DNA from: Candidatus Bipolaricaulota bacterium
Lineage (GTDB): Bacteria > Bipolaricaulota > Bipolaricaulia > UBA7950 > UBA9294
NCBI GenBank assembly: GCA_040752575.1
Contig: JBFMGK010000011.1
Coordinates: 2,580 to 66,579, forward strand
Length of the DNA stretch: 64,000 nt
Reading direction: 5' to 3'
Shown here: positions 13,549-59,549 of the stretch, piece by piece
Position numbering within the stretch: position 1 is the stretch's first letter
Layout of the letters: the number at the start of each line of letters is the position of its first letter
Made by a program: the position numbers and the translations under genes
Notes under the pieces: generated by a model
What the model saw: only the letters and a program-made list of their open reading frames with translations
What the model was told of the DNA's origin: nothing
Database searches by the model: none

Positions 13549-13700
13549 GGGGTCAGATCTTCATTCTTGGTGTTCCTGCGGCTCCGTGATGAGTCTCAGG
13601 TGCCTCGGGCTCGGTCCTGCGTCACGACGGTGGGCGCGCGGCAAACCTTCCTCTTGGGCGAAGTCGCACTGCTGTCGGGTGGCGGGGGCGCGTCTTGCCT
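13549..13700 (+). repeat. Direct repeat copy 1 (152 bp), starting and ending in 26-bp GGGGTCA..TCTTG motifs
   Basis: 150/152 identical to 15382-15533. Confidence 0.95.
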
Positions 13701-14153
13701 TTGGGCGTTGGGTCCGGTTGACCGTCTGCGATAACGGGTTTGTCGGCCTTCCCCTGATATGTTCATAGTGTCGATGCGTGAGTCAGCTCCGTGTACTGGT
13801 CGCGAACGCATACGTGCAGGAGCGCAACGAGTGCAGAGGCCACAACCAAGTGCAGAGGCTCCCCGCGCGCGGGTTCGCTACTTCGCTGACGAAGCGGGGG
13901 GCCCAAAGCTCTTCGGTGAGAAGGGGCGCTGCATCACCGGCAAGGACGGATGCTCGCACTGCTTTGCTCTCCGACTCCCCGAAGTCGAGGCCCGCGCGGA
14001 ATGCGAAGCAGGCTGAAGCTGGTGCAGAAGCGGCTGCTGGCCGATCCATGCTCCCGTGGAGCCAGCAGCGTCCATGCCGCGACCGCGGCAACGAAGGGCT
14101 AGCTCCATGGCGGGATTGTGGTTGTTATCTATCTGGATTACTCTATTCTGCAC

Positions 14154-14948
14154 ATGAGAGGCTACCGTTTGTACGTCGACGAGGTCGGTAATTCCAGCCT
14201 GCGCGTCGGCGATCCGAACAACGAGAACGATCGCTTCCTATCGCTGACCGGCGTAGCCGTTCGAGGAGACTACGCACTCGCGTCCTTCGTGCCTGAGATG
14301 GATGCCCTGAAGAGGAGATTCTTCCAGACAGACCCAGACGTGCCGGTGATCCTCCACAGGACGGATATGCTCAACAGGAAGTGGCCTTTCACCGAGTTGC
14401 AGGACCCGGCTACAGAGAGCGCTTTCTATGTAGCGTTGAACGAGCGACTGGCAGCGTGGGAATATGCAGTTGTCTCCGTCGTGATAGACAAGCACCGGCA
14501 GAAGAATCTCTACCAGGTTTGGCAGGCTAATCCATATCACTACTGCATGAAGGTGCTACTAGAGAGGTACGTGATGTTCCTGCAGGGGGGCAGCGCGACG
14601 GGCGATGTCATGGTAGAGAGCAGACAGGCGAAAGACGACTTCAAGCTCAAGGAGTCGTACAAGCGTCTCTACATCTCCGGCACCGAGCGAATCGCAGCCA
14701 CGAGTTTCCAGCGCCGGCTATCGTCGAAGGAACTGAAGGTCAAACCCAAGAGCGCCAATATCGCGGGCCTTCAACTCGCGGATCTACTCGCCTGCGGAGC
14801 GCAACGAGGGATTCTCTCCGAGGTTGGGCTCCCGTCTCGCTCGAACCACGGGTTCGACTCGGATGTCTGGGCGCTTCTTGAGGGCGCGAAGTTCATCCGT
14901 GACCGCGATGGAAAGACTCTTGGGTTCGGAAAGAAACTCCTCCCATAG
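14154..14948 (+). CDS. DUF3800 domain protein
   Basis: LYVDEVG N-terminus, VILHRTDM, ESR..KDD, NIAGLQLADLLA. Confidence 0.85.
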   Translation: MRGYRLYVDEVGNSSLRVGDPNNENDRFLSLTGVAVRGDYALASFVPEMDALKRRFFQTDPDVPVILHRTDMLNRKWPFTELQDPATESAFYVALNERLAAWEYAVVSVVIDKHRQKNLYQVWQANPYHYCMKVLLERYVMFLQGGSATGDVMVESRQAKDDFKLKESYKRLYISGTERIAATSFQRRLSSKELKVKPKSANIAGLQLADLLACGAQRGILSEVGLPSRSNHGFDSDVWALLEGAKFIRDRDGKTLGFGKKLLP

Positions 14949-14954
14949 AAGAAG

Positions 14955-15030
14955 AGAAGCGCCCGTTGGGGCGCCCTCCCGATGGCCTACGGACCATCCA
15001 CCTCCGACGAGCGGATTACTCCGAGCTTAG
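14955..15030 (+). ncRNA. Candidate DUF3800-associated structured RNA
   Basis: GC-rich short stems (GCGCCC/GGGCGC; GATGG/CCATC) immediately after the DUF3800 stop; position typical of DUF3800 RNA motifs; no covariance test done. Confidence 0.4.
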
Positions 15031-15133
15031 CATTGTGTACGTGCGAAGTCAAGAGCGCCGCGGCTGCGTAACCCACACCTCTACTGAGCTTGGCGCATCT
15101 TGCGCAGAGTTTCGAAGCGGGCGACGGGGTCTG

Positions 15134-15542
15134 GGAGTCAGAGTCGTTTCTTGCCCCTAGACGGCAGTGGGTCAAAACGAAGCTGGCGTTGACACCAGTG
15201 AGGTCGCGTGGTCAGATCTCAACTCTTTGCATCGCGCGGCACCTCGACAGGACGTCAAAGTGGCCGCGGGGTCAGATCTTCATTCTTGGTGTCTCTGCGG
15301 CTCCGTGATGAGTCTCAGGTGCCTCGGGCTCGGTCCTGCGTCACGACGGTGGGCGCGCGGCAAACCTTCCTCTTGGGCCACGGGGTCAGATCTTCATTCT
15401 TGGTGTTCCTGCGGCTCCGTGATGAGTCTCAGGTGCCTCGGGCTCGGTCCTGCGTCACGACGGTGGGCGCGCGGCAAACCTTCCTCTTGGGCGAAGTCGC
15501 ACTGCTGTCGGGTGGCGGGTTCGCGTCTTGCCTCTTGACGTT
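15134..15542 (+). repeat. Array of GGGGTCA-family motifs (about 15134, 15208, 15268, 15382, 15517) including repeat copies 2 (15268-15378) and 3 (15382-15533)
   Basis: Direct alignment; 114-bp tandem duplication; variable spacing 74/60/114/135 bp. Confidence 0.85.
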
Positions 15543-15748
15543 GGCACGGGCGACCCCCTTGATGCGGTGTCGTCTGGTCCTGCACTGCTGCACCCCGGCG
15601 CACCATCCGTCGGCGTGAAGAGGCCGCCAACGCCGTTCGACTTCGCTACTGCCGCGGTGCAGCTTCCCCGGCGCATCCCCGAAAGGGGGAGACGGTCGAA
15701 GCGCTGGAAATGGCGGAATCTCCTGGTCTAGGTCTTGCGCGCAACGGC

Positions 15749-16813
15749 CTAGAGCACGCCCTCGGCCGCGCCGAAGGCCTTCGAGATGACGCGTTCCGTT
15801 TCGCCGCTCACAATCATCAGCAGGTAGTCGCCGACCTCGATCGAGATGTCGTCCCGCGGGAGTTTCAGCAGCTTGCGGCCACCGCTTGTGCCCTTTGCGA
15901 TGCCGATGAGGACGACGTTGTATGCCTTCTTGAGGTCAACGAAGGCGTCCCCGTACGTCCGCCCCGCGTAGGGATTGCCTGGCGTCACGAGGAACTGCTG
16001 GATGTCGTATTCGTCGCTCCCCTCGGCAGAGGCGAGTAGATCGGCCTCGTACTCCGCGACGTCGGGTTCGAAGATGTAACTGGCAACCATCTTCGCGGCG
16101 ATCTCGCCTCGGGAGAGCACGAAGGTCACTCCCGCCGTGCGGAACGTCCCTCGGAGATCCTCGTTATCCAACGCGACGACGAACTGCGCGTTCGGGAATT
16201 CGCGCTTGATGTTGAGGATGGCCACCAGCTTGTCCGTGTCGGTCTTAAGGTTCGGGAAGACCATTCCGGCGTCTCGGATCCCGGCTTTCTCCAAGACGAG
16301 CGGATCCCTGAGATCGGCGAACAGCACGAAGACCTTGTCCCTTGGGAACTGCTCGTGGATCAGATCGACGTCGTCCTTCGCATCGGTAACGATCGCGACG
16401 CGCAGATCGGCTTTCAAGAGCTGCTGCGCGACCGACTTGGCGAAGTCGTCCCAGCCTACGATGAGAACATGCTTGCTGAAGCTCGTTCCATTGTGCCCCA
16501 TCCTTCTGCGCTCCCTTATCTCCGAGAGGCGTCCGGAGACCTTGTAGACGAGAACTCCGAGGACGCCAAGGCTGCCCAAGAGAAAGAGCGAGCCGATCGC
16601 CCTTCCCCCCGCGCTGACGGGGTACTTGTCCCCGTATCCGACGGTGGTGAGCGTGACGAGCGAGTACCAAGCGGCATCGCCGACACTGCGGATCGTCGCG
16701 CCGGGGTGCCCACGTTCAGCCCACACCAGAGACACGACGAGGAGGCTCCAGACCAGAACCAGAGGGACGATCACCTGCCACAGCCTCGGTCCATTCGTCT
16801 GCCGACCGCTCAC
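15749..16813 (-). CDS. Potassium channel protein (2-TM pore plus RCK/TrkA domains)
   Basis: Selectivity filter TLTTVGYGD, KHVLIVGWDDF; GGAGG RBS before GTG 16813. Confidence 0.92.
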   Translation of the reverse strand: MSGRQTNGPRLWQVIVPLVLVWSLLVVSLVWAERGHPGATIRSVGDAAWYSLVTLTTVGYGDKYPVSAGGRAIGSLFLLGSLGVLGVLVYKVSGRLSEIRERRRMGHNGTSFSKHVLIVGWDDFAKSVAQQLLKADLRVAIVTDAKDDVDLIHEQFPRDKVFVLFADLRDPLVLEKAGIRDAGMVFPNLKTDTDKLVAILNIKREFPNAQFVVALDNEDLRGTFRTAGVTFVLSRGEIAAKMVASYIFEPDVAEYEADLLASAEGSDEYDIQQFLVTPGNPYAGRTYGDAFVDLKKAYNVVLIGIAKGTSGGRKLLKLPRDDISIEVGDYLLMIVSGETERVISKAFGAAEGVL

Positions 16814-17104
16814 GACACCTTCCTCCCGCCTGCCGGGCCGCCGGCCATCTGCCCGATCGAACGTCACCCGCAGCCCCGAGCCCTCGCGTGAGGCGTTGCC
16901 TGCCGTGGCGGGACGCCTCGGCAGAGAGCATAGGGCGAGAACGAGGCGGAAGGAAGAGATCCTGACGAAGGATGCCTCGGGTTCGGCTTGCGGCGAGGCT
17001 TGTGGGGCGGCATCGGTCGCGGCGCAGAGAGCCGTGACGAGCGCCCTCCCGACGCCGATCCCTACGCCCAGGTCCGGCGGCGTCAGGCGCGAAGAGCAGG
17101 CTAG

Positions 17105-18301
17105 TTACGTTGGCGGCGCAGAGGCGCTGCCCAGATCGAGGAGCCGGCTCTCTCCCTGGAGGCTCCGGATCTCTGTCGCATCCTGACTGACCTCGAGGCA
17201 ACCGAGATACGAACCCTGCTCGTCCCGAACTGCGAAGTACTCGATCACGATGAAGCGGCCGCCCAGTTGGATCCAGAATCGCGCCTCGTTTCGCGATCCG
17301 TTCTTGAACGCATCCAAGATCTGGAGGACCTTGTCAACGCTCTTGGGAGGATGGCAGTTCGTAACCGAACGGCCGATCACGGCGGGGGTGCGGGGGAAGA
17401 CGCGCTGCGGGTTGTCGGAGTAGAACTGCACCCGATCCTGCGCGTCGACGAAGCTAATGTCGACGGGCAAGCGAGTCAGCATCCGGCGAAGCTGCAGCTC
17501 GGTGAGTTGCCCCGTCGCGAGGCGGATCCCGGCGACGTCTTGCCCTTGTCCGCCCGTCCTCGAGCTGTCTTCCGGCGTCGCAGGCCACGCGGGGGGCTTG
17601 CCGAAGGCGAATCCGACGGCCTCCTCGCCGCGGCGCATCTCGACCCACTCCTGGTCGGACAGCTTACCCAAGGCCATTGGGAAAAGGATCTTCTCTTCCT
17701 TGTAGATCATCTCCGTGATGGCCTGGGCCAAGCTTGCGATGTCCCGAGCTCCCGCCTCGCGATCGCCTGTGAGTGCCTCCGCATCGAGGTCGCGAAGCTG
17801 CTTACGGATCTGGTCGTGGATGCCCCACATCACCTGCGTCGGACCCGTCACGCCGTGCTTTTCGAGGAAGGGAAACAGCTGGTTCTCCTTCCGGAGGTAA
17901 TGGATGTGGACCTTCGCGAGGGTTGCGAGATGTTCGGCGATGGCTGCATGGCGGCTGCTTTGCTCCTCGATCCGCGAGGCCTCGAGAAGACGATTTGCAG
18001 CTTGCTCAAACTCGCGATTCTCCAGCATGTAAGTGTGAAGGGGATGGCCCGCCGGAACGCGAGAGATGCCTTGGTCCTGGAGGCGGTCGCGGACAACGCC
18101 TACGTGGAGATCGCAAAGACGTTGGATCTCCTCCACGGGGAGCCCTTGGCGGATGAGCGTCTGCTCCATCTCAGCCAACTCGTCGGGGGACACCTCGGCG
18201 ATCAGACGGTCGAACCTCGCCTTCACACTCTCAACGGCTTCTCCTGCGTGAAGAGCCAGAATCATCCTCTTCAGGGCTTCAGTCTTCTGCGCGTCAACCA
18301 T
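17105..18301 (-). CDS. DUF438-hemerythrin-PAS domain protein
   Basis: LHAGEAVESVKARF, LCDLHV, GHPLHTY..EN, HYLRKENQLFP, MWGIHDQIR, C-terminal PAS with NCHPPKS. Confidence 0.88.
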   Translation of the reverse strand: MVDAQKTEALKRMILALHAGEAVESVKARFDRLIAEVSPDELAEMEQTLIRQGLPVEEIQRLCDLHVGVVRDRLQDQGISRVPAGHPLHTYMLENREFEQAANRLLEASRIEEQSSRHAAIAEHLATLAKVHIHYLRKENQLFPFLEKHGVTGPTQVMWGIHDQIRKQLRDLDAEALTGDREAGARDIASLAQAITEMIYKEEKILFPMALGKLSDQEWVEMRRGEEAVGFAFGKPPAWPATPEDSSRTGGQGQDVAGIRLATGQLTELQLRRMLTRLPVDISFVDAQDRVQFYSDNPQRVFPRTPAVIGRSVTNCHPPKSVDKVLQILDAFKNGSRNEARFWIQLGGRFIVIEYFAVRDEQGSYLGCLEVSQDATEIRSLQGESRLLDLGSASAPPT

Positions 18302-18527
18302 CGTGACCTCCGGCAGTACAGTACCCAGGGAACGGGGGCCGTCCAAGTGCTCGGGCCATCCACAACCGGAGCGGCGTGGGCCTGCAGGGTCCGGTGGCGG
18401 TGCGCCCGCCATCGTTGCGGAGCCGCCGCGTCTCAGCTGTGGAGGCGCGCCGGCCCGGGGAATCGAGGGCTCCGAGGCGTGCTCACCCCTCACTTGCTAC
18501 TTCTTCGGCGCGCTCGCGCACTTGCGC

Positions 18528-19895
18528 TCAGGGCGCGACGACGGTGAGATCGGCCGCGAACGTTCCGACGACCGTGCCGGCGCTGGTCGCCGTCACAACG
18601 ATGGAGGCTGCCTCGCCGTGGGGCGCGGTGGCCGGAGGCATCACGGTCAGAAGCACGTTTCGGGTGGGGCCGGGAGTGCTCACCCACTGCTTCTCGATGG
18701 ATACCTCCGTCTGGCTGAGGCAGGCATACCAGCCGGCCGGCACGCCGGAAACGGAGAGGGTGAGGTCGAGATCGGCATAGCCGAAGCCGGCCTCGTACAG
18801 GAGGACCTCGTAGTACGAGGGCGAGCGTAGGGTAAGGACCCACGAGATCGCGACGCCGAGAGGAACGTCGGCTTGTGCCTGCGTAACCTCGCGCGGTCGC
18901 TCGACCTCGGTGATGCTGGCTGTGTGTTGCTCGTCGAAGCTCGCTCCGGAAATCCCCCTCTCGTCGCCGCGGGCGACGGTGAGGTGCTGCGGAAGAAGGA
19001 ACGTTGCGGGGACGCCCGTTTCGGGGAAGTGGTTGTTGAACATCTCAAGGACCAGGGCCGCTCCCGACGGCACCCAGGGCGAGCTCTCGAACTCCGTCCA
19101 CCCAAGGTCGGGGAAGAAGACGTCGATCCAGACATGGCCGATGCCGTTCTGGGCGTCGGCGTCCGCCACGTACCCCCAGGCAGGCCGTGACGGAATCCCG
19201 GCAGCTCGCAAGAGGGCGAGGGCGAGGTTCGAGAAGTTCCCGCAGATGCCGCGGCCGTTCTCAAGCGTCCAGAGCGCGTCGATCTGCGGCACGGGAGTGT
19301 CGCACTCCGCGATGGCCACATGCTCATGGAGCCAGCCCAATACCCTCGCCACGACCTCGATCTGCATGACCGCGCCGGTCGTGAGCTGTCCCGCCAACTG
19401 AGCGACGGCTGGGGCATCCGACTGGACCTGCGCGCTTGCCGCGAGCCACGGCAAGGCATCCGCCGGAAGAACACCCGGGTCGATCGGATAGCGTGACGTC
19501 GTGAGGATCGGGGCGTATAGAGTTTCGTCCAGCCAGCGCGTCCTCCGGACGAGGCTAGCGTCGCCCGAGGCGTCGGTCCAATGGGCGATGAACCACCGGT
19601 TCCCATCGGTGTCCATCTCCTCCCGCGAGCTCTGAAGAGCGGGATCCGCGGTCAGGTCGCAAGCGGCGATCCTCTGCTCGTGCCCGAGAGAGCCGCCTGA
19701 GGTCGGCAAGGAGATGGTGACGCTGACATCGCTGGGTCCGGTTCCCGCGGCCGCAATCACCGTGTACGTGTGCTCGGACTCCTGCAGCAGGACCCCCTCG
19801 AGGGCGAACAGAACGGGTCCCGGCGTCATCTCCTCGGCCGCAGAGCTCAAGCAGACCATCGCCAAGAATCCCAGCGTGAGTAGCACGATCTTCAT
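18528..19895 (-). CDS. Secreted transglutaminase-like domain protein
   Basis: Signal peptide; GICGNFSNLALALLRAAGIPSR, GHVWIDVF, GWTEFE. Confidence 0.8.
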   Translation of the reverse strand: MKIVLLTLGFLAMVCLSSAAEEMTPGPVLFALEGVLLQESEHTYTVIAAAGTGPSDVSVTISLPTSGGSLGHEQRIAACDLTADPALQSSREEMDTDGNRWFIAHWTDASGDASLVRRTRWLDETLYAPILTTSRYPIDPGVLPADALPWLAASAQVQSDAPAVAQLAGQLTTGAVMQIEVVARVLGWLHEHVAIAECDTPVPQIDALWTLENGRGICGNFSNLALALLRAAGIPSRPAWGYVADADAQNGIGHVWIDVFFPDLGWTEFESSPWVPSGAALVLEMFNNHFPETGVPATFLLPQHLTVARGDERGISGASFDEQHTASITEVERPREVTQAQADVPLGVAISWVLTLRSPSYYEVLLYEAGFGYADLDLTLSVSGVPAGWYACLSQTEVSIEKQWVSTPGPTRNVLLTVMPPATAPHGEAASIVVTATSAGTVVGTFAADLTVVAP

Positions 19896-20197
19896 GTCGA
19901 CTGGCCCTCCTTCGCCACGCAAGCTTCGCGCGAACTCCGCGAAGCCTAAGCCTCGGACACACGCCCAGGCCCTCTGACCCAGAGGCAGTTTACGGATCTC
20001 GTGCATCCCAGCCAAATCCACCAGGTCGGGCGTCTGCGACCGGTGGCGTCGGACTCAGCGCGCATCGGGCGCGGCGGCTTCGCGTGGGCGAAGGCTCTGG
20101 CGAACTCGTCGCCCAGGGGCCTGTGTAGGCGATGTCCCAAGACCAGTGCGCTGCACGTGCTCCGGAGAGACAGCCCGGGCATGAGGCCGGCGAGCCG

Positions 20198-20560
20198 TCA
20201 ACCGGCGCGCAGGATCGACGCCACGCGGGCGAGAACGATCGCCCGAACGACGGCGTCCGGAATCGGATCCGCCGGCTGGAAGCGAATGGCGCCCCTGCTT
20301 GTCGCGAGTCCCGTAAGCGCGGGGAGCTGGGCTTCGATGAGCTTTGGATCCAAAGGATAGAGGGCGCAGTGCTTCTTGGTCGCCCCATAGGCGACCAAGG
20401 GTTTCCCGTCGAGGCAGAGGGCCGGGACTCCGTAGCTCATGCACTCCCTGGCCTCGGGCACGGCGTCCCGAATGACGGACCGTAGACGTTCCAGCGCGTT
20501 GCGCTGGTCGATCGACAAGCCCTTCAGGTAGTTCGCGATGCTCTCGACGTCGTGGGTCAC
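20198..20560 (-). CDS. DUF1801 (YdhG-like) protein
   Basis: LERLRSVIRDAVPEARECMSYGVP, KKHCALYP, GAIRF. Confidence 0.85.
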   Translation of the reverse strand: MTHDVESIANYLKGLSIDQRNALERLRSVIRDAVPEARECMSYGVPALCLDGKPLVAYGATKKHCALYPLDPKLIEAQLPALTGLATSRGAIRFQPADPIPDAVVRAIVLARVASILRAG

Positions 20561-20805
20561 ACGGGCAGTATAGCCGTGCCTGGGGGTGCCGAGCCTGTGA
20601 GAAGGTCGTCAGCCTCCACACCGCGCGAAGAAGCGATCGGCGTAACGCTGGGGCGGACGATACGGGGACCGTGGAATGCGTCAAGAGGCGGACGACATGC
20701 GGGGTCTGGCTGGAGTGCCTGGGAGACTCATCGGACCCTGCCGCCGGCCCCCCGTGCCTAGATCTCTCGTTGGGAGCGGTTCAAGGGCCGAGGGCAATGC
20801 GGCGA

Positions 20806-21110
20806 CTACGGATCCGCGAAGCGCAGGGCGTCGAGCGCGCGGCGGGCGGCGGCGTTGAGCGGACGGGCTCTGCGCGTTGCGGCGTCGATCTGCACGGCAA
20901 TGACCTCGGCCTCGGCGACCCAACGCTCCTCCTGGAAGACCGCCTGCGTGAGCGTGATGGAGCTGTTCCCGATTTGCTTGACTGCCGTGCCGATGGTGAC
21001 GGAGCCCGGCCAACGGACATCACCCAGGAAGCTCAGGTCGAGATGGGCAATGACCAGCTCGGCATCGCCGTCCGCGAGACGCTCCCGCGCACGGGCGATG
21101 CCGGCGCCCA
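20806..21110 (-). pseudogene. 5'-truncated acyl-CoA thioesterase (hot-dog fold)
   Basis: C-terminal part LVIAHLDLSFLGDVRWPGSVTIGTAVKQIGNSSITL..VQIDAATRRARPL intact; N-terminal D..GHVNN segment absent; upstream boundary approximate. Confidence 0.65.
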
Positions 21111-21171
21111 ACGCTTGTCGGCGCACGGGCCGTCTCGCTAGATTCGGTGGACTGCGGGAGAGGAGGCCGAG

Positions 21172-21816
21172 ATGGAGGGTCGAGTCGGGATTCGCGGCGT
21201 CGCGATCGTCGCGTTGGTTGTTCTCGGGCTTGCGCTGGGGGCTGTCACTCAAGAGAACCTCGCGCTCTATGGCGGCGTTGGCATTGTCCACGCGATGGCA
21301 TTCGATGCGGGAGATGCGGTGGAGATCTCAGGGTGGCTGTGGATGCGCCCGGAAACGAGGCAGTACGCCGACTGGGTATTTGGTCCGATTCAGACGAGCA
21401 GGGTCTCTTTGGGCGATCCCTACGTCTACATCCACATCGACGCTCTGGTGACGAACGGGCTGGATGGAGGCAGCGGCTGGAGCACACACGTGGGCGTCGA
21501 GCTATACCTGATCAACGACACGGGTGCAGCTCTCGGGCTTGCAGAGCCCGTGGGTAAGAACATCGCGACGAGAACCTCCGTGTTGCTCGACAACCCATTT
21601 CTGCCCCAGGTAGAGGGGAACACCTTCGGAACCGGGTATCAAGCATCGTCCGAGCCGCTCCGAATCTCCACGGAGCTCGTGGATCGGTACGCGAGCGAGT
21701 TTGGGCCGCTGCTCCTCGTGCGCGTCCTGCGGAAGGGTGCGAGCGAAGGGGAACCTGAGCACATTGCCGTTCGCCCCGGCGGCGTCTGGCTGTCGTTTGC
21801 CGCCGCGCCCGGGTAA
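21172..21816 (+). CDS. Hypothetical secreted protein
   Basis: GGAGAGGAGG RBS, signal peptide, coding-like composition. Confidence 0.7.
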   Translation: MEGRVGIRGVAIVALVVLGLALGAVTQENLALYGGVGIVHAMAFDAGDAVEISGWLWMRPETRQYADWVFGPIQTSRVSLGDPYVYIHIDALVTNGLDGGSGWSTHVGVELYLINDTGAALGLAEPVGKNIATRTSVLLDNPFLPQVEGNTFGTGYQASSEPLRISTELVDRYASEFGPLLLVRVLRKGASEGEPEHIAVRPGGVWLSFAAAPG

Positions 21817-22030
21817 ACCGGAGAGAGACGGAGAGAGACGGGGCGTTTGCGGCTGGCGGGAGGAGGGATGACGCCACGCCCAAGGCGTCGTGCGAGGCGT
21901 CAGCGTCGGACGGCCCTTCGGTCGGCGTCTCAGCACGGGCAGCATGGGACGTCGAGTCCGCATCTCGGCGCCCCGCGGGTCGAGTTCGTTTGGCTTTGCG
22001 GCGGACTCCGGAACCCCTCCGGAGAGAGGC

Positions 22031-22266
22031 TCAGGTCGTGTCTCCCAGCAGCTTCTTCGGATCCCCTGCCGAGGGAACCTTTCCCACCGCGACGAGATTC
22101 CCTTCGATCGCCAGCGCTGGCGTGAGCATCACGCCTCGGTTGACGATCTCGTCGATGCTCGTCACCTTGATGACCTCGGCCTGAAGCGACCGGTCTGCGA
22201 CGGACTTCTCCATGGCATCCGCCAACGCCCTGCACTTCGGGCACCCGGTACCCACTCAATCTTCAT
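22031..22266 (-). pseudogene. Small redox-active disulfide protein (MTH895-like thioredoxin), frameshifted after codon 4
   Basis: RBS GGAGG then ATG AAG ATT GAG TG GGT ACC GGG TGC CCG AAG TGC; GTGCPKC..TPALAIEG lies in a different frame. Confidence 0.8.
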
Positions 22267-22280
22267 CTGCATTCCTCCCT

Positions 22281-22883: not shown

Positions 22884-22895
22884 GCCTTGAGATTC

Positions 22896-49548: not shown

Positions 49549-49571
49549 ACTACTCGAAAGGAGCAGCAAAC

Positions 49572-50679: not shown

Positions 50680-51775
50680 CGTGGGCTCCGCGCCGCATGA
50701 CTACGTGCTCGTTCTCCCGGAGCGCATCGGTCAAGTCTGGACTGTCACGACAGACCTCCCATCCAGTTTGCGTGTCCAGATCAGGTGGCGTACGAGGTTC
50801 CGCAAGGGTGGGCGGAGGCGGTCCATCGGAACGAGCAGGCACGGGTGGACCCGCGCCTTGTCGCGGACGTTGGTGAGGGAGTTCGTCCAGCGATCATCCC
50901 GGGTGAGCTGGCCAAGAGAGGGTAGTTCTTGTCGGCCGAGGTTCGGTCCACGGGGCTAGGGAACCAGGAGGAGTGATGTGTGCACACCCGGCGAGCTCAT
51001 GACACTCAGGCAGCGGACAGGCGCACCACCACCCGTGACCCTTGGCCGTCGAAACGCGTTGCGTGAAGCCGTCAGGCGGATGATGGCTGACGGCAACTCG
51101 CAGCCTCGCATCGTGAGCTCGGACGGAGGCCGAGTGGAGGGCGTGATCAGCACCGAGAGCTTCGTCCACGCGCCCTGCCACGTGCACGATCCAGCGGGGC
51201 AGCGAAGGGGATACGCCCAGGAATCGTTGCGGCCAAGCGTCTCGCAGTGCACCGGGGAGAAGGCGCTACACCCAGCCGACACGGGCATGTTGGGGATCGG
51301 GGATCATCTGGCACGGTCAACCTGCTTGCCTGTTGAGGAAGAAGGTCCGTTGGCTGTCATCCTGGCGCACGCGGATCTTGTGGATAGGTTTCGGCTGCTC
51401 GCGGCCCCCTTCTTGGTGATCAGCATCATCGAGCAGAGCCTTCGGTCACTCACTCAATGTGCCTTCGCAAAGGACGCAGAGCTTCAAGAGGCGACCGATG
51501 GCGCCCGACTCCATCGTCGGCAAAAGATCCGCAGTCGTTGGAAGAAGCGACGCTTGACGACTAACGCCAGATCAGCATCTGCAAGAGGAACTGCCGCCGC
51601 TTCGACGAGCAGAGCTCCGATCGAGACGCCACCGAGAGGCGGTTCATCAAGGTCTGTGGTCCGCGCCGTGACCTGTTCCACTTCAGGTCACACGCTGACC
51701 GACGATCAGAAGGATCTTCCACTCGAACCGTGCGGTGGCTCGGCCGATTGGGGACCCGCACGGCCCGCAATGTAG
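50680..51775 (+). pseudogene. Degenerate CBS-pair plus Swt1-like HEPN gene, possibly with a restriction-associated N-terminal region
   Basis: LREAVRRMMADGNSQPRIV..VEGVISTES; ADLVDRFRLLAAPFLVISIIEQSLR; after a frameshift SLEEATLDD*RQI...RRDLFHFR. Confidence 0.5.
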
Positions 51776-51784
51776 GGAGGTTTC

Positions 51785-52261
51785 ATGACGAAGCTGATGC
51801 TTCCGGCAGGGATTCTGTTCCTGCATAACGTGTTCACAGTGGTGTGGATCGGGGGGATGATCACGCTAAGCTTGATCATTCTCCCCGTTGCCAGCAAGGT
51901 GCTCGGACGGGGGGCGCAAACGAAAGAACTCGTGGATCGGATGCAGAGCAGGCTGAGTTGGTTCGTCTGGGTCAGCATTGCTGGACTGCTTCTCACCGGG
52001 GTATTGCTCTCGAAGCGAGCCGCAGCACTCGACCAGCCGTTCTCGTTTGCCACGACGTACGCAGCTGTCCTCTCGGTGAAACACATCGCAGTCGGCCTCA
52101 TGGTTGCCCTCGCGGCGACACGGAGGTGGTTCCTGAGGAGCAAGAGGGGGAGCCGACAGCGCGGGTTGAGGAAGGCCTCTCTCGTCCTACTGGTTGCCAA
52201 TACTGCCCTTGGGCTGCTGGTGCTTCTCCTGAGTTCGATGGGGGCGGTGTTGAACGCCTAG
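51785..52261 (+). CDS. CopD/DUF4149-like four-TM membrane protein
   Basis: FLHNVFTVVWIGGMI, LLLTG, LSVKHIAV; GGAGG RBS. Confidence 0.75.
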   Translation: MTKLMLPAGILFLHNVFTVVWIGGMITLSLIILPVASKVLGRGAQTKELVDRMQSRLSWFVWVSIAGLLLTGVLLSKRAAALDQPFSFATTYAAVLSVKHIAVGLMVALAATRRWFLRSKRGSRQRGLRKASLVLLVANTALGLLVLLLSSMGAVLNA

Positions 52262-52570
52262 CAGATGGAGGCTCGGCTGCCGTGCTTGGCCATGACGCCA
52301 CGATGGGCAGGTGTGGGTCAAGGCTGTATTGGGGTAGTTGCCGAGTCGAGCGGCGTTGGCCGGTAGGATCACTTCGAGAGAGGAGCGATCGTGATCGGCA
52401 AGAACAGAGGCATCTCGCCAGCTGAGTGCGTGACACGGTGCGGCGGAGGGAAGGGCGGGTCCGGTCGCGGCGGCTTGACGCAGGCAATCCACCCTCTGGA
52501 GAACCCAGGGCGATTCACGGGGAGTTCGATGCGCGGGACCGAACGGAAATCGAAGTGCGGCTACTGCTGG

Positions 52571-53137
52571 ATGCGCATCGGACGCGCGGATTCGTGGTTC
52601 TCGGCTGCCGTGATCCTTGCCGCAGCGACCGCCGTTGTCTGTCTGGGATACTGGGCCTACCAGGAGATGCGGGCGATGGAGCATCGGCTGGTGAGCATCC
52701 TGGGGATCTACGCTCTGGCCGGGATCTTCTACGGGAATGTGGGTGTGTGGATGCATGAGCAGCTTCACGGCCTCGCCTATCGTGGGAGCATCCCCGCGAA
52801 ACGGATACGAGTGTCCTACGAGCGGAGGCTCATCCTCGGTCTGAGAGGCTGCTACCGAGTGAATGGGCGGATGGCCTACCGAATCCAGAGGCGCGCCCTC
52901 TTGGCTCCTCTGGTCTTGTGTGGAGCCCTCGCGGTCCTCGGAGGACTGGGAAGCCTTGTCCTTCCCGGGTGGTGGCTCCCCGTGCTGTTGAGCCTCGCGG
53001 TGGCAAGTCTCGCGGACATGCTCCACGACATCTACATGGTGCTCAAGATGCGACCCATAGGGGACAAGGGAAGATACTGGGACCGCGGCTCTGAAGTCCA
53101 TGTTGTGTGGAAGGCGGAACGGCCGGCGGACGGGTGA
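52571..53137 (+). CDS. DUF3267-like membrane zincin
   Basis: WMHEQLHGLAY (HExxH), ALLAPLVL, LADMLHD; start uncertain. Confidence 0.65.
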   Translation: MRIGRADSWFSAAVILAAATAVVCLGYWAYQEMRAMEHRLVSILGIYALAGIFYGNVGVWMHEQLHGLAYRGSIPAKRIRVSYERRLILGLRGCYRVNGRMAYRIQRRALLAPLVLCGALAVLGGLGSLVLPGWWLPVLLSLAVASLADMLHDIYMVLKMRPIGDKGRYWDRGSEVHVVWKAERPADG

Positions 53138-53528
53138 GCGCGTGAGACCCAACGGAGTGAGCGTCGCTGGGTGCCATGATCGCGCGAGGAATGCACCCGT
53201 TGACCTTCGCGCCGAAGACGTGCGGTCTGGCGGGTCAAGACTCGCTCTAGACGATGCAGCATCTCGCGCCGTCTTGTCGGGGGCATCTTCTGGATGCTCT
53301 GAGGCTTCCACGGGGGCGGCACGCCGCTCGAGATGGCCGAAGCCAAGCCGTATCCACTCCGGCTCACCTCGTTGCCTCGACAGCAGGAAGCCATGCTTCG
53401 TCGCCGAGTGGTGAGACGAGTCCCTTCGGGGCGCACCCTCGGCCGCGGTATGCTTGTGGGCAGCGGCTGCCGCGCGGCGAAGCCAACGCGCCAGCGGACC
53501 CAGCGAGACTCGAGGAGCAAGCAGGGAC

Positions 53529-55388
53529 ATGAAGCGGAAAATGCTCGTGGTTCTGATCGTGACCGGTCTGCTGGCAGGTGCAGGAGGCGGCTCTTGCCCG
53601 CGCGCTGAACCGCCGCCCCTGCGGCCGCAGGCGGCGAACGGGGAGCCGGATGTCCCGCCAGCGATCGCGACGCGCGAGCCCGCCGCCGGCGCGACGATCA
53701 CCTTCGCCTACGGGTCGCCGGAGTCACAGGGTGTCGCTTCCGAGGCGCTGCAGGATCTGGCGGAGATCGTTCGCGGTTTCGTCGAGAACGACGGAATTGT
53801 CGGAGCGGAGCTTGTGGTGCTCAAGAACCGGTGCGTTCTGCTGCACGAATCCTTCGGCTGGAAGGATCGAGACGACGGACAGGCCATGGCGATCGACACG
53901 CTGTTCAACATTCGCTCCATGACCAAACCCGTGGTGGGCACGGCCGTCCAGATGCTCATCGACGACGGGCAGCTCGCGCCGGGCGATGCGGTGGCCAAGT
54001 ACTTGCCCTCGTTCGACAACGCGAGATCGCGAGCCATTACGATCGAGATGCTGCTCACCCATCGCAGCGGCCTGCCCATGAGTCTGATCGCGGCATCTTT
54101 CGGAGAATACACGAGCCTGCGCAGACTGGCCGATGCCGCGGGCGAGCGCGGCCCCGACTTCCAGCCGGGCAGCGCGTTCCAGTACAGCGACGCGGGGTTC
54201 GAAGTCCTCGGCGCGCTGGTCGAAGTCGTATCGGGCGTGCCCCTGCAGCAATTCGTCCAGCAACGCATCCTCGACCCCCTGGGCATGGCCGATACCATCA
54301 TGCTGCCCGAGCCCGACGATCCGCGCGTGGAACGCATGGCCAGCCTGTACTTCGGCGCCCGGGGTAGCTGGAGTCTGCTCTGGAGTCAGGATCGAGGTCC
54401 CCTCTATCCCTTTGCCATGGGCTCTCAGAGCCTCTACAGCACGCCGCTGGACTACGCCCGCTTCCTGACGCTGTGGATGGACTGCGGTGTGATTGGCGAT
54501 CGGCAACTCCTCTCGCCCGAGGCAACGCGCCGGGCTCTGACGCCGGTGTCGGACAGCAAGCTGTCCGGCGGCTTCCACGGCCTGCGGCTTGACTACGGCC
54601 AGGCGTGGATTGTCTATGTTCCTCAGGATGCGCCAGAAGGCGGGGGCGCGGTGGCGCTGTTCGGCCACAGCGGTTCCGATGGCACCTGGGCGTGGGCCTG
54701 GCCGGACCAGGACCTCCTCGTCCTGTACTTCACCCAATCGCGGGGCCAGGGCACCGGCACGATTCTGGAGTCCGAGGTGGACCGCCTGCTGATTCACCCT
54801 GGCCGGTACGAGGCGGAACTGCCGGCGGAGCTGGAACCGCTCTTGGGAACGTACACCGCCCTTTCCGGGCCCCTGATGTACCAGGAGTTCGAGATCGTCG
54901 CCCTCGATGGAGGATTGGCCGTCCGTCTCCCCGAGCAGGTCGTCGTGCCCCTTGAGGGTCCGGACCGCGCGGGCCGCTGGACCCTGGCTGTCGATCCTTC
55001 GTTGTCCGTCTCGTTTGTGCTCGACGAACAGGGAGATGCAACCCGAATGCATTGGCATCAGGCCGGCGAAGTCTTCGACCTGCCCCGGGGCGCCGCCCCC
55101 GAGGAACCGCCCCTCGACCGGGAAGCCGTGCAGAAGTACTTGGGCCGCTACAAGCGGCCGGAGGACGGCGCGACCATCGAAGTCGTCATCTACAACGGAC
55201 ACCTTGGCGTCGTATCGCCCGAGGTGTCTGCCGTGCTCGAGCTATTCCCGCCCAGCGAGGAGGGCGCGTGGCGCTTCCGACTGAACCCTGCTGTGTACAT
55301 CAGCTTTCAGGTGGGGGAGAACGGCGAGGTCGCGTCGTTCACGGCACATACGCCGGAGGGCGACTTCGTCCGGCCGAGAAGCGAGTAG
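53529..55388 (+). CDS. Secreted serine hydrolase (beta-lactamase/AmpC family) with two C-terminal beta domains
   Basis: FNIRSMTKP (SxxK), LLTHRSGL, FQYSDAGF, FGHSGSDG. Confidence 0.9.
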   Translation: MKRKMLVVLIVTGLLAGAGGGSCPRAEPPPLRPQAANGEPDVPPAIATREPAAGATITFAYGSPESQGVASEALQDLAEIVRGFVENDGIVGAELVVLKNRCVLLHESFGWKDRDDGQAMAIDTLFNIRSMTKPVVGTAVQMLIDDGQLAPGDAVAKYLPSFDNARSRAITIEMLLTHRSGLPMSLIAASFGEYTSLRRLADAAGERGPDFQPGSAFQYSDAGFEVLGALVEVVSGVPLQQFVQQRILDPLGMADTIMLPEPDDPRVERMASLYFGARGSWSLLWSQDRGPLYPFAMGSQSLYSTPLDYARFLTLWMDCGVIGDRQLLSPEATRRALTPVSDSKLSGGFHGLRLDYGQAWIVYVPQDAPEGGGAVALFGHSGSDGTWAWAWPDQDLLVLYFTQSRGQGTGTILESEVDRLLIHPGRYEAELPAELEPLLGTYTALSGPLMYQEFEIVALDGGLAVRLPEQVVVPLEGPDRAGRWTLAVDPSLSVSFVLDEQGDATRMHWHQAGEVFDLPRGAAPEEPPLDREAVQKYLGRYKRPEDGATIEVVIYNGHLGVVSPEVSAVLELFPPSEEGAWRFRLNPAVYISFQVGENGEVASFTAHTPEGDFVRPRSE

Positions 55389-55549
55389 GAGCGGCCGGGA
55401 GAGTGGCGTCACGCCCCCGGCGTGGGGGGATGTCCATGGGGCGTCTCGGTGCGTGAGACAGAGCCAGCCTCGCACGCCAGCAAAGCGGCTTCCCGTCGTC
55501 TTGAGGAGCGCCGAGCGCCGCTTGCTGACGTTTGGCCTGGAGCCTGAGA

Positions 55550-55642
55550 GCCGATCAGAGAACTCCGGTGGCCGTGGCAGAGTGGTAGTCATTGGCGGCG
55601 AACGGAACATCAAGAGGCAAGGGGTGACCCCACTGCCCGTGT
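55550..55642. repeat. Dispersed repeat copy A containing the 26-bp motif on the minus strand (55606-55631)
   Basis: Colinear, roughly 80% identical to 57055-57144. Confidence 0.85.
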
Positions 55643-55785
55643 ACCCCTGCGAATGCATTGCGACGTGCGTCTTGAGTTCCCTCAGTTCTCACGCCAAGAC
55701 GCTGGAGGCCTCACGGTGGTATCCTGGGAAGCGCGCATTGCGCAACACGGCGGAGGCGTTGTCGTGCCAGAGGAAGGAGTGCACC

Positions 55786-56976
55786 GTGGCGGCATTGCGG
55801 CGATTTGCGTGGATGGGGCCACTGATCGTGCTGGCGGCGAGCGCCATCGCATGTGGCCAGGTCACATCTTCTTCGCTGTTCGAGATGCTGGCGCGGGTGC
55901 CGCAGGCCGCGGTGCCCGCAAACAGCGTGTGGGCGGTCGCCCGCTACGCCAACTACGAGGCATTGTTCGCCGCCGAGGGTGCGACAGAGCTTCGGGATCT
56001 CGGAGACGTGGCACGGATGATGGAGTCCCTGCCGCTTGGCGCCATACTGAACCGCGTCGTCGCCGGTCCGGAAGCGATCAACTACCTCTCTTCGGGTACA
56101 GGGCAGATGCCCGACGTAGTTGGCTTCGAGTGGCTCGTGGATGTCGATAGCAGCCTCGAGTTCGGGGATCCGCCGGACCTCGGCTTGCTTCTGGGCGGCG
56201 ACTTCGACGCCGAGGCGATCGGACGAGCGCTACAGGGCCGCAACTTCGCCCTCGAGGAGATCCAGGGGGTTCCGGTCTGGCACCGGTTGGGGGATCGAGA
56301 GATCTCGCTCCAAGACCGCAATCCGGCCGATCCGTTTGGCGGTCACCTCGGAGCGGCGGCGCGCATCGCACTCCTTCCGAGGATGATCGCCAATGCCCGC
56401 AGTTGGCCGTTCATCGAGGCAATCCTTGCTGCGGGGACAGGCGAGCTGCCATCGTTGGCCGAGGACGTGGGCTACCGGGCGCTTGCCACAGCCGTCTCGG
56501 AGCCAGAAGGGATGCTCATCCAGGCGTTGCTGTTCACCGGCGCTTCGTTGCGTGTGACGGATGTCCCCGAGCTGTCCGGCGACCTAGCGCTTGAGCCGAT
56601 CGACGGACTGCCGTGGTACTCCCACGCCATCCTTGCCGATCGACAGGAGGGCGACGATCAGGTTCACCTCATCGGGCTGGTGTGCAGCGACAGGGTCACG
56701 GCGCAGACTGCCTCCTTCGTGCTGTCAGGGCGCTTGGAAGCCTTCCATCCGCCCGATCAGCCCGAGCAGGTGCTCGCCGAACGATACGGGGCGACGACCC
56801 GTGCTTCGGTCATCGAGTTCCCTGAGGACAACTTGGCCATCGCCCTGGTCGAGGTACGCTACCCCGTGCCCGCCGACCGCGACGACCCAGACACCGGCTT
56901 CTACGCCACGCTCGGCCCTCTGTTCCGCGCGTGGGTGAACGCAATCCTCCGGCGTGAGTTCAGCCCCCTCTGGTGA
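55786..56976 (+). CDS. Hypothetical secreted/lipoprotein
   Basis: AGGAAGGAG RBS, GTG start, hydrophobic leader ending AIACG. Confidence 0.7.
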   Translation: MAALRRFAWMGPLIVLAASAIACGQVTSSSLFEMLARVPQAAVPANSVWAVARYANYEALFAAEGATELRDLGDVARMMESLPLGAILNRVVAGPEAINYLSSGTGQMPDVVGFEWLVDVDSSLEFGDPPDLGLLLGGDFDAEAIGRALQGRNFALEEIQGVPVWHRLGDREISLQDRNPADPFGGHLGAAARIALLPRMIANARSWPFIEAILAAGTGELPSLAEDVGYRALATAVSEPEGMLIQALLFTGASLRVTDVPELSGDLALEPIDGLPWYSHAILADRQEGDDQVHLIGLVCSDRVTAQTASFVLSGRLEAFHPPDQPEQVLAERYGATTRASVIEFPEDNLAIALVEVRYPVPADRDDPDTGFYATLGPLFRAWVNAILRREFSPLW

Positions 56977-57054
56977 TTCGCGGGTGCGTTGGAGCTGCTC
57001 CGTCCCGTCGATGGGCGGAAGTGCTCCACGAGGGGATGGATCGTGGAACCTGGG

Positions 57055-57144
57055 GCCGATGAGAGAACTTGGGTAGCCGTGGCAGAGTGGTAGTCATCGG
57101 CGCCGAACGGAACGTCAAGACGCAAGAGCTGACCCCGTCGCCCG
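57055..57144. repeat. Dispersed repeat copy B containing the 26-bp motif on the minus strand (57111-57136)
   Basis: Direct repeat of 55550-55642. Confidence 0.85.
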
Positions 57145-57295
57145 AACGGGTTGGCAAGTTGCGCGGCGGCGACACACAAGCCACCCTCTTCACTCTTGTA
57201 GTAGCATGGGATGAGTGGGAAGTGAGGCGTTCTCTTCCGTTGGCTTCGGCGAATACAAGAGAGATCGTGGGAGATACGTAGAGGAGGAAAGACTG

Positions 57296-58402
57296 ATGGT
57301 GTCAAAGGCTAGACTGCTCGCTCCCGGTGTTGTTCTGCTGGTGATCCTCGTTGTCTCCTCGAGCAGCGTCAGGTGCGAAACAGGTTCAGCCTCTGCCAAC
57401 CCATCTGACTGCCCGTTCCAAGAGCTCTACGATCAAGGGGTGGATCGCTATCTTGGTGTATTCGTGCCAACAGCCACGGAACTCCTCATGGGAAACGTTG
57501 TCAAGCACGAATTCGTCGGCGGTGACGGGCCCCTTTGCTTCACTGGCAACGAGTTCTCGATGTACACGAGAGATGGTGAGAGCGAGGAACTCATGATCTT
57601 CCTGCAGGGTGGCGGTGCCTGCGGACCGACATCTTGCGAAGCTGTCGATTTCCCCTTGCCGATTGTCAGCCTGGGCATTCTCGATCCCAGAAACGCGGCA
57701 AACCCTGCGGCGAACTTCGACCTGGGCTACACACCCTATTGCGACGGAACGCTGTTCAGTGGCGACAAGGAAGTCGATAGCAATGGAGACGGAAACATCG
57801 ATCGATTCTTCCGCGGAATTCAGAACCTCTCGGCCGCACTAGACGTTATCGCCAGCACCTATCCCGCCCCAAGCAGAATCCTCCTAGTCGGCAATAGCGC
57901 AGGCGGGTTCGGCGTCCATTACGCCTTGCCGCTTGTTCGGAAGCTGTACCCGGAGGTGCCGATCGACCTTGTCAATGACTCCGGAGTCGGCATCCAACAA
58001 CCTGGTGTGCAGGAGAGCCTGATTGACTATTGGAACTCCGGTGGCTTCTTCCCGGCAAGCTGCAGTCGTTGCATCGGCGACGATGGCAATCTCACCGACT
58101 ACTACAAGTACCAACTCGCCGAAGACGAGAACGTCCGAATGGGCTTCATCAGCTCCACGCGTGACGAAGTGGTGACTGGACGAACGATGATCGACGGTGC
58201 CGAGTTTGAAGCGCAGCTTATCGCGGCAATGGCCGAGCTCGAACAGGCATACCCCGACCGCTTCCGCAGCCTGATTTCCGACACGGCGGAGCATACCTTC
58301 GTCATCAAGCAGTTTGGGTTCGCTGTCGCCGACACCACCGTCCTGCAGTGGATCACGGATATGCTAAGTCAAAGCGGTGATTGGGTGTCCGCCAGCGACT
58401 GA
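57296..58402 (+). CDS. Secreted pectinacetylesterase-family hydrolase
   Basis: IFLQGGGAC, PYCDGTLFSGD, GNSAGG nucleophile elbow, NDSG; GAGGAGG RBS. Confidence 0.85.
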   Translation: MVSKARLLAPGVVLLVILVVSSSSVRCETGSASANPSDCPFQELYDQGVDRYLGVFVPTATELLMGNVVKHEFVGGDGPLCFTGNEFSMYTRDGESEELMIFLQGGGACGPTSCEAVDFPLPIVSLGILDPRNAANPAANFDLGYTPYCDGTLFSGDKEVDSNGDGNIDRFFRGIQNLSAALDVIASTYPAPSRILLVGNSAGGFGVHYALPLVRKLYPEVPIDLVNDSGVGIQQPGVQESLIDYWNSGGFFPASCSRCIGDDGNLTDYYKYQLAEDENVRMGFISSTRDEVVTGRTMIDGAEFEAQLIAAMAELEQAYPDRFRSLISDTAEHTFVIKQFGFAVADTTVLQWITDMLSQSGDWVSASD

Positions 58403-58564
58403 TCCACCATTCGGCATGAAGAGCCTGCACGCTTGCCTGGCCACAGCATCCAGTCACGATTCACCGGGAGCCGACTCATCTGCGTTTAGAGCCTAGGAGA
58501 CCCGAGCGAAGGCTCCCGCCTTCATAGGTCCTAGAGAGCGTTAGGGAATCGCGCACCAGAAAGA

Positions 58565-59518
58565 AGGGTCAGGTCTTCCTATCACGCATTCCTTCTTCTC
58601 CGTATCACACCTTCCTGTGCGCGCACGCGGCGGCTGATGGTCGAGTAGTGAATGCGAAGATGCGCGGCGATCTCCTGCTGGGTGTAGCGGTGTTCGAGGT
58701 ACGCGCGGGCAATCCCGGCAGCGTCATCGGGGTTGGAGACGATGGCGATGAGTGCAGGCCGCCCGGCGACAAGCTGATCCCGGGGGATCTCTGAGAAGGC
58801 CGTTCGCGGGGGCGTGTGCTCCTCGATGAACGCGTCGCTCCCCAGATAGACTTGCCCGCGCAGGTTCTCCCACACCGTGACCCCGCGGCCTTGTGATACG
58901 AACTTCCGGTACGCCTTCTGCGCTCTGGCCCTCGATGCGCCGAACTGGTCAAGGATCCAGTCGGTCGTTAGGAACTCGGGTGTGGCCTCGAAACCGGCCG
59001 TGGCGCGATAGCTTGACCATGGCCAGTCCCGCGCGGAGCGGACCATCCGAGCTCGAACCGGATTCAGGACCACGTAGCGGGCGAGCTCAAGGAGGTACGG
59101 ATCCCGCTCCACGAGGACTCCCTTGAAGCGCCCCTGGAAGACGTGGCCCGTTCTTCGGTGCCTGCGGTTGAACTCCTGGGTGTACACGCCATTCAGCTGT
59201 CGCATCCCGAGAGACAGGGTGGGCTCAAGCGTCTCGATCAGGAGGTGATATGTGGTTGGCGACGCTGCGCGTCGCTAGGGGCGAACTGCGTTCGCCTTGA
59301 CGTTCTGGCAATACGCATGGCACTGCCAAGTGAACCGTTCGACGACCTCCGTGAGCAGCTCGAGGAACATCTCTCGGTCGGGGTCGGTGAAGAAGATCTT
59401 CTCGCGCGCATTGCCGCGACAAGTCACATGGTAGACAGCTCCGGGGTACTCAATTCTCAGAGGACGAGCCATATGCCCAGCATAGCCCTTTCGGTGCTTG
59501 ATAGGAAGACCTGACCCT
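58565..59518 (-). mobile_element. RAYT (TnpA-REP, Y1 HUH) element bounded by perfect 20-bp inverted repeats
   Basis: AGGGTCAGGTCTTCCTATCA at 58565-58584 and its reverse complement at 59499-59518. Confidence 0.85.
58582..59472 (-). pseudogene. RAYT transposase with C-terminal HTH, interrupted at the HUH motif
   Basis: MARPLRIEYPGAVYHVTCRGN...CHAYC, in-frame TAG 59277-59275, YHLLIET..GMRQLNGVYTQEFNRRH.R.GHVFQGRFK...NPVRA...WPWSSY. Confidence 0.92.
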
Positions 59519-59549
59519 ACGCCCTGACCCTACGCCCTGACCCTACGCC
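59511..59549. repeat. Tandem repeat (CTGACCCTACGCC)x3
   Basis: Three exact 13-bp units overlapping the RAYT upstream inverted repeat. Confidence 0.95.

Follow-up and report, generated by a model that had tools for sequence, protein, structure and literature searches.

The window (64,000 nucleotides of contig JBFMGK010000011.1, Candidatus Bipolaricaulota bacterium; analysed at its full length) carries intergenic copies of a 26-nt motif and, near its right end, one gene for a RAYT-like transposase enclosed by terminal inverted repeats (TIRs). The gene is a disrupted member of the TIRYT class and the element a TIRtron. The window contains relic solo copies of the motif, direct arrays of copies and this single inactivated TIRtron. 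Copy numbers and positions of the motif refer to the window.

Motif copies and resident element

Base composition of the window is 63% G+C. The exact word GGGGTCAGATCTTCATTCTTGGTGTT occurs twice, at 13549 and 15382, and a copy at 15268 differs by one base. A degenerate pattern gives six matches, including 15517 (plus strand), 55606–55631 (minus) and 57111–57136 (minus), and none in 100 shuffles. Two position-weight matrices were scanned, one from the window sites and one from other genomes; both retrieve the pattern sites, 13684 and, weakly, 15208. At 12 bits the matrix scan returns eight matches, against 0.3–0.6 in shuffles. GGGTCAGNTCTT occurs six times (0.03 expected), twice as the inverted repeats around the transposase gene. 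A preliminary description of this DNA had listed these copies, placed them between genes, equated their 5' part with the terminal repeat of the transposase and named a frequency no higher than in shuffled sequence as grounds for rejection. The exact and near-exact copies on that list are all present and enriched over shuffles, every convincing one lies between long open reading frames (ORFs), and the 5' identity extends to both TIRs of the gene. Its degenerate copies are retained in part: 13684 stands, 15208 stands as a weak site, and 53231 and 15134 score below 10 bits in both matrix scans. What marks the 15134 copy is a common 14-mer alone, CGGGCGACGGGGTC at 15118, which is the reverse complement of 57131–57144 as that description stated.

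The copies occur as singles and co-oriented clusters (Table 1). The stretch 13548–13711 is a recent duplicate of 15381–15544 (97% identity), 15267–15380 is a tandem partial copy of 114 nt, and 55550–55639 and 57055–57144 are 86% alike across 90 nt; the set therefore comes down to about four old independent copies (A, B, C1 and C2). A, B and C have in common only the motif and a few flanking bases. The genes that follow C1 and C2 were compared as possible paralogues arising by plain tandem duplication and have no similarity.

Table 1. Features of the motif family and of the adjoining blocks (window positions)
Feature	Position	Strand	Description
Copy A1 with about 7 nt of outer sequence	13541..13574	+	canonical 26-nt TIR at 13549-13574
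Unit A1-B1	13548..13711	+	164 nt; TIR A, 85-nt interior, degenerate TIR B1 at 13684-13709
Copy A2	15268..15293	+	head of 114-nt tandem partial unit 15267-15380
Unit A3-B2	15381..15544	+	97% to 13548-13711; copies at 15382-15407 and 15517-15542
Unit C1	55550..55639	-	90 nt; TIR copy at 55606-55631
Unit C2	57055..57144	-	86% to C1; TIR copy at 57111-57136
Resident TIRtron	58565..59518	-	954 bp; 912 bp without insert
3' TIR AGGGTCAGGTCTTCCTATCACGCA	58565..58588	+	overlaps stop codon
TIRYT pseudogene	58582..59472	-	Y1/HUH core and HTH_23/HTH_28 tail; in-frame TAG, broken HUH
Double-hairpin insert	59251..59303	-	53 nt replacing 11 nt of the intact allele, net +42
5' TIR AGGGTCAGGTCTTCCTATCAAGCA	59495..59518	-	ends 22 nt upstream of ATG 59472-59470
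Three tandem 13-nt units GGCGTAGGGTCAG	59511..59549	-	each 5 nt of outer flank and first 8 nt of TIR; last unit is the TIR tip
DUF3800 block	13733..15258	+	94.9% to L119; right tail with degenerate TIR-like copies at 15118-15157 and 15208-15233
DUF3800 gene	14154..14948	+	PF12686, E 2e-13

The arms of the resident TIRtron, 24 nt each, are 96% complementary. Its helix-turn-helix tail is recognised as HTH_23 (E 2e-5; 24.6 bits, at the cut-off) and HTH_28 (E 1e-4) at residues 164–199 of a 207-aa ORF. The insert folds into a pair of hairpins, each with a 7-bp stem and a 3-nt loop (z −4.2), and splits CHAYC...NHYHLL, so that CHAYC and YHLL lie 19 codons apart versus 5 in homologues. It is in frame but carries a TAG. 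Since the HUH is broken by this insert, the window gene is a pseudogene member of TIRYT. A second copy of the insert was not found in the window; it may be a REP-type mini-element targeting the HUH-codon site. A contig of run X16 (1,040 nt) matches 58565–59250 and 59304–59519 at about 97%, with both flanks unrelated to the window. It holds 11 nt in place of 59251–59303, restoring CHAYCQMTNHYHLL. The match from tip to tip in other flanks identifies the TIRtron as a discrete unit bounded at its tips, and the absence of the insert from an allele with intact HUH identifies the window copy as a derived dead allele. Another intact gene (P0123), 94% identical, belongs to an island of defence genes and insertion sequences in another organism.

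The resident TIRs (AGGGTCAGGTCTTCCTATCAMGCA) match the dispersed copies over the first ~14 nt only. In their inner half (...TCTTGRYGTT) the dispersed copies are of the canonical type found in two intact elements of other genomes, L023 and L116. The dispersed copies, differing in their inner halves, are therefore not derived from the resident element.

Intact elements and the wider repeat family

In other genomes the 26-nt motif abuts or overlaps the 3' end of homologous genes with a Y1/HUH core and a helix-turn-helix tail. The elements L116 (6557–7472, 916 bp) and L023 (2515–3436, 922 bp) are intact TIRtrons. In both, GGGGTCAGGTCTTCATTCTTGGTGTT or a near variant spans the stop codon of a 281–282-aa gene (...KHQE*), and an inverted copy of the first ~17 nt of the motif precedes the ATG by 20–25 nt. 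Both proteins exceed the cut-off of PF01797 (Y1_Tnp) and are 54–57% identical to the window gene 58582–59472 over the full length. TIRs flank the gene in L116, L023 and also L123. In intact elements the motif is the 3'-end inverted repeat, overlapping the last codons. Its reading frame varies by locus (...KHQE*, ...TPRKKT*, ...NTKNEGLTP), and the motif is therefore conserved as DNA and not as protein. The exact A-type TIR of the window recurs in 18 metagenome stretches, with a TIRYT gene or gene fragment adjoining in 12; these neighbours are mostly of the L023 type (82–96% identity). The association of the motif with a RAYT-like transposase, proposed earlier from the window alone, is confirmed by these adjoining genes and by the 3' overlaps.

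TIRYT genes in TIRtrons, with TIRs sharing GGGGWSAS, were described by Di Nocera, De Gregorio & Rocco 2013 (PMC3733652), together with moderately abundant families of dispersed TIR copies that stand singly, as dimers or in clusters (PMC3733652). Most TIRYT genes fall into TnpA_Y1 subclass 2.1 according to Quentin et al. 2018 (PMC6006769), subgroup 2.1.2 being distinguished by HTH_23/HTH_28/Bac_DnaA_C tails (PMC6006769). The present elements have the Y1/HUH gene, the long TIRs and the dispersed TIR family, and GGGGWSAS fits GGGGTCAG. The window gene has the C-terminal helix-turn-helix tail of subgroup 2.1.2; its close homologues are annotated PF13384 and PF01797. The element kind is thus already known, as TIRYT/TIRtron, named in 2013. 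Copies A and C2 and the cross-genome consensus read GGGGTCAG at the box and C1 reads GGGGTCAC. The resident TIRs begin AGGGTCAG, a 7/8 match to GGGGWSAS. The B copies deviate from the box (GGGTTCGC at 15517, GGGGGCGC at 13684). TIRtrons are very common: close protein clusters of TIRYT numbered more than 7,000 in one search. We know of no TIRYT that has been assayed.

The pattern GGGKTCNNNNCTTNNNTCTTGRYGTT, run over one genome per species, gives at least 118 stretches. Among the matches listed, its seven free positions are biased, with A at position 7 in 105 of 128, G at position 8 in 91 and T at position 10 in 90; the bias is strong, and about 100 of the matches listed are therefore one family. 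The family comprises at least 100 loci under about 12 phylum labels in this species-representative scan. Its cross-genome consensus, GGGGTCAGGTCTTCATTCTTGGTGTT, differs by one base from the window A copy. Labels among the matches listed include Bipolaricaulota/Acetothermia (16 loci), 'uncultured Thermotogae' bins (19), one Vicinamibacterales metagenome-assembled genome (8 contigs) and further Acidobacteriota, Planctomycetota/Brocadiaceae, Thermodesulfobacteriota, Kiritimatiellales, Actinomycetota, Atribacteria, WOR-3, Dehalococcoidia, Bacteroidota and Endozoicomonas. A minority of matches arises by chance within conserved genes, e.g. four Stenotrophomonas loci.

Outside the window the family takes the form of full TIRtrons, gene-less miniatures, tandem direct copies, fusions to C-terminal fragments, dimers and solo copies. 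Gene-less elements are 57–392 bp long with TIR tips outward (L033, L091, L027, L054, L007, L026, L112, L061, L114, L118, L044); that of L033 (62 bp) forms a perfect hairpin of ~30 bp (z −12.7). Such miniatures are the counterparts of REPINs. Tandem direct copies are spaced at 29–44 nt (L009, L095, L004, L100). Some TIRs are fused to C-terminal fragments of TIRYT. Five co-oriented TIRs are present at L139 4174–6064 / L147 6050–7940, three of them fused in sense to residues ~210–282 (the helix-turn-helix part) of a window-like TIRYT; these may be internally deleted elements that possibly still encode the DNA-binding tail alone.

Tip duplications and borders of variable blocks

Beyond its 5' TIR the resident TIRtron has the three tandem units of Table 1. 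Exact tandem duplications of the same design (5–9 nt of flank and the first 8 nt of the TIR; 13–17 nt in all) occur at eight further independent loci in several phyla (L138, L144, L084, L093, L094, L107, L108, L124). All end ...GGGTCAG, GGGTCGG or GGGTCAC. L124 has two units; eight other samples of the same locus (L123, L125–L131) have one. Of 148 tips, 17 have GGGGTC or GGGTCA within 30 nt on the outside; the background is 1.5%. The duplications suggest that a site-specific event takes place directly behind TIR position 8, within GGGGWSAS; this position may be the nick site of the HUH enzyme.

The same TIRtron has two different left flanks at L132 and L123. The common sequence starts GGGCGAT/AGGGTCAG; the window reads GGGGCGT/AGGGTCAG. 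Most high-GC A-type copies are likewise preceded by a GGGCGNC-like heptamer. It follows from this junction and this heptamer that the mobile end reaches about 7 nt past GGGG. A target-site consensus outside the tip, sought across all genomes, amounts to a weak G-rich bias at −5/−6.

Contigs of relatives diverge from the window beside the copies. In the run X3 strain (98.6–100% identity in pieces of ~190 nt or longer) the contig tracks the window to 13541 and then diverges; the A1 tip is at 13549. Locus L119 (run X1) carries 13733–15258 at 94.9% identity, the match stopping 9 nt before the A2 tip. In runs X15 and X17, from different studies, the PAE esterase gene has an unrelated left flank, and the match runs from 57143 rightwards, starting 7 nt outside the C2 tip. 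On the right, X15 and X14 diverge after 58558, 6–7 nt short of the TIRtron tip. No informative contig of a relative was found for the left border of C1. In all four places where the match of a relative's contig ends beside a copy, the break is thus 6–9 nt outside the GGGG tip, an offset explained by the extension of the mobile end ~7 nt outside GGGG. When the loose ends of these contigs were compared with the window for a simple empty site, no match within 5–6 edits was obtained. The 890 nt upstream in X15 are absent from the window even at 80% likeness. Circular or excised joints were not seen in the relatives' contigs.

In L119 (253–7523) the DUF3800 block has an MmeI-type restriction gene on one side and, on the other, a gene pair of RelE/HigB-like and helix-turn-helix type, the pair being read from sequence. 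It is free of A-B units and of flanking direct repeats there; both TIR-like copies of the tail are kept. Given its recurrence at 95% between MmeI-type and RelE/HigB-like genes, DUF3800 behaves here like a movable accessory gene of the defence-island type. Exact-protein look-ups of the window DUF3800 and ABC-2 proteins returned no record. The DUF3800 stop codon is immediately followed by an 8-bp GC-rich stem (14949–14976), listed as terminator-like on the minus strand; it falls inside the block shared with L119.

At loci of other phyla, co-oriented TIRs or hairpin miniatures flank AbiEii with Phd, two ParE modules, a CopG antitoxin and Fic (L089 2044–3674; L090 359–2141; L093 381–1959; L033 204–1949).

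Interpretation and alternatives

The motif copies are very probably dispersed ends of a TIRtron, an element of ~0.9 kb with a single TIRYT gene and TIRs beginning GGGGTCAG. TIRYT we take to be a RAYT-like Y1/HUH single-strand-DNA nuclease with a C-terminal helix-turn-helix domain. An intact TIRYT of canonical type would have produced the copies in trans. Given the divergent inner half of its repeats, the resident gene is unlikely to have been their source. The enzyme would act at the GGGGTCAG box, probably just after position 8, and recognition of the inner half of the repeat, which is specific to the lineage, would fall to the helix-turn-helix tail. The copies of this genome may by now be largely inert relics that mark sites of DNA insertion or recombination, and it is for this reason that variable blocks (DUF3800, the 55786–56976 gene, the TIRtron) would end there.

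Several observations weigh against derivation of the copies from TIRtron ends. Cleavage, binding and mobilisation in trans by TIRYT are predictions. Inverted pairs of copies are not present in the window besides the TIRtron itself, so the REPIN-like miniature form is absent from it. Units A and C have interiors of 85–90 nt without a match in TIRYT coding sequence or in the loci retrieved. These interiors were examined as decayed TIRYT C-termini by tblastn with three TIRYT queries and by three-frame translations, and the motif alone was recovered.

A different account of the copies was put forward in the preliminary description, in which they delimit mobile cargo. Developed as a cassette system, it makes them recombination sites where one-ended or rolling-circle-like HUH reactions let a TIRYT capture neighbouring genes or move them as units, building arrays of alternating repeats and genes; this is unlikely. 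It draws on two repeat-gene-repeat layouts in the window (A-B/DUF3800/A-A-B and C1/gene/C2), on the four of four contig breaks 6–9 nt outside a TIR tip, on the DUF3800 block 95% identical in an unrelated island, and on the co-oriented TIRs that elsewhere flank AbiEii/Phd, ParE/antitoxin, CopG-antitoxin and Fic genes. However, breaks at repeat ends are also expected from simple insertions, and flexible regions gather selfish repeats as well as genes for toxin-antitoxin systems or defence. The L119 block is without the flanking A-B units and direct repeats, and the 152–164-nt near-identical flanks in the window better suit homologous recombination, Campbell-type or unequal, at a TIR cluster already in place. 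The PAE block falls beyond both neighbouring tips, the PAE gene being outside both elements. The resident enzyme is dead, and circle or excision joints are not seen in relatives' contigs. The dispersed copies moreover differ in their inner half from the ends of the resident pseudogene. The evidence for delimitation of cargo is circumstantial, namely the four breaks at tips and the recurring DUF3800 block. Insertion or recombination at repeats accounts for the data equally well. In its strongest form, equally doubtful, the cassette account treats TIRYT ends as site-specific single-strand recombination sites cut just after GGGGTCAG that serially capture toxin-antitoxin, Fic, DUF3800 and other accessory genes. 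TIR arrays would then be an integron-like or ISCR-like platform of gene capture in Bipolaricaulota and many phyla, and the 13–17-nt tip duplications would be footprints of abortive reactions.

That the motif is a regulatory site, i.e. a promoter (−35 TTGACG) or an operator common to several genes, is highly improbable. TTGACG/TTGATG does occur in the inner half, and C1 and C2 lie ~150 nt upstream of gene starts. Yet a sigma-70-like promoter is predicted at no copy, so that a purely promoter-based explanation, which the preliminary description had named as able to overturn its proposal, fails. Orientation is also inconsistent, the A copies running along plus-strand genes and the C copies being opposed. 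Copies form tandem arrays, and an identical 26 nt ends the transposase gene in many phyla. An ECF-type reading of the reverse strand (GGAAC-N17-GACC), made by eye, was dropped because the copies at 13.5–15.5 kb would point into the ends of convergent genes. Least probable of all, and scarcely tenable, is an origin of the copies as by-products of local segmental duplication with no link to a mobile element. The near-identity of A1-B1 and A3-B2 (97%), the tandem A2 and the likeness of C1 and C2 (86% across 90 nt) speak for duplication, but the A copy is one base from the consensus of at least 100 loci with ~12 phylum labels, and A, B and C are alike only in the motif and a few flanking bases. 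Local duplication is refuted as the sole explanation; it holds for the A1/A3 and A2 copies.

With described TIRtrons the present system shares the Y1/HUH gene with an HTH_23/HTH_28 tail, long TIRs, GGGGWSAS (here GGGGTCAG), dispersed singles and clusters, and a patchy distribution over phyla; there is no difference in kind. REP sequences are short imperfect palindromes with a GTAG (or CGTC) head, repeated in hairpin-forming inverted doublets. Their association with RAYT enzymes is known from Nunvar 2010, Bertels & Rainey 2011 and Ton-Hoang 2012. Likeness to REP/REPIN-RAYT systems consists in a homologous Y1 enzyme, in a gene that lies between inverted copies of the repeat dispersed in its genome, and in TIR-bounded miniatures that form REPIN-like long hairpins in other genomes. 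The motif differs in lacking a GTAG head and in not being palindromic as a single copy, and TIRYT differs in its extra helix-turn-helix domain. Being found in different contexts, the TIRtron looks mobile and not domesticated, unlike REP/REPIN-RAYT. Assignment to REP/REPIN-RAYT is rejected: the GTAG head is lacking, folding of units A, C1 and C2 does not surpass that of shuffles (z +1.4, +0.7 and +0.1), and inverted doublets do not occur in the window apart from the TIRtron itself (the family has them in other genomes, for example in L033). The earlier claim that the copies lie outside classical REP models holds as to folding; the class as such had been described in 2013 (PMC3733652).

IS200/IS605 elements (IS608, ISDra2) and their gene-less PATE derivatives belong to the same Y1/HUH superfamily (PF01797). 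They have subterminal hairpins, lack TIRs and insert beside a tetra- or pentanucleotide target, whereas TIRtron ends are true inverted repeats of 17–26 nt. Membership in IS200/IS605 is ruled out by inverted repeats of 17–24 nt that extend to the element tips. To our knowledge, single-strand 'peel and paste' as in IS200/IS605 is the only studied mechanism on which a model can be based. ISCR/IS91 elements and integron attC arrays are alike in layout only, i.e. co-oriented repeats between accessory genes that stand singly and often have toxin-antitoxin or defence functions. The window copies differ in having neither an attC-type hairpin nor an HUH-Y2 enzyme, and evidence of capture events is absent. 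An integron array was rejected: no fold signal was obtained, and neither integrase nor tyrosine recombinase occurs among ten neighbouring proteins scanned against Pfam. A CRISPR array was rejected as well: the best copies have 'spacers' that are identical tandem duplicates, copy spacing is 60–135 nt, and there is no Rfam match.

The locus adds to the TIRtron class a 26-nt end with a consensus across phyla and an overlap with the last codons, tip duplications ending at position 8 (the likely cut position), repeats sited at block borders, at the edges of variable genes, and a gene inactivated by a hairpin insert, with broken and intact alleles. For annotation, 'mystery motifs' of this kind in uncultured genomes are to be read as transposon ends, not as promoters, CRISPR-like arrays or a new cassette system.

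A gathering-threshold Rfam scan of the window gave tRNA only. The tRNA scan gave one tRNA-Ala, unrelated to the motif. At 62335–63904, separate families of short direct repeats (50–63-nt units of 7-/9-mers) border a small gene pair near this tRNA on either side and have no relation to the TIR motif.

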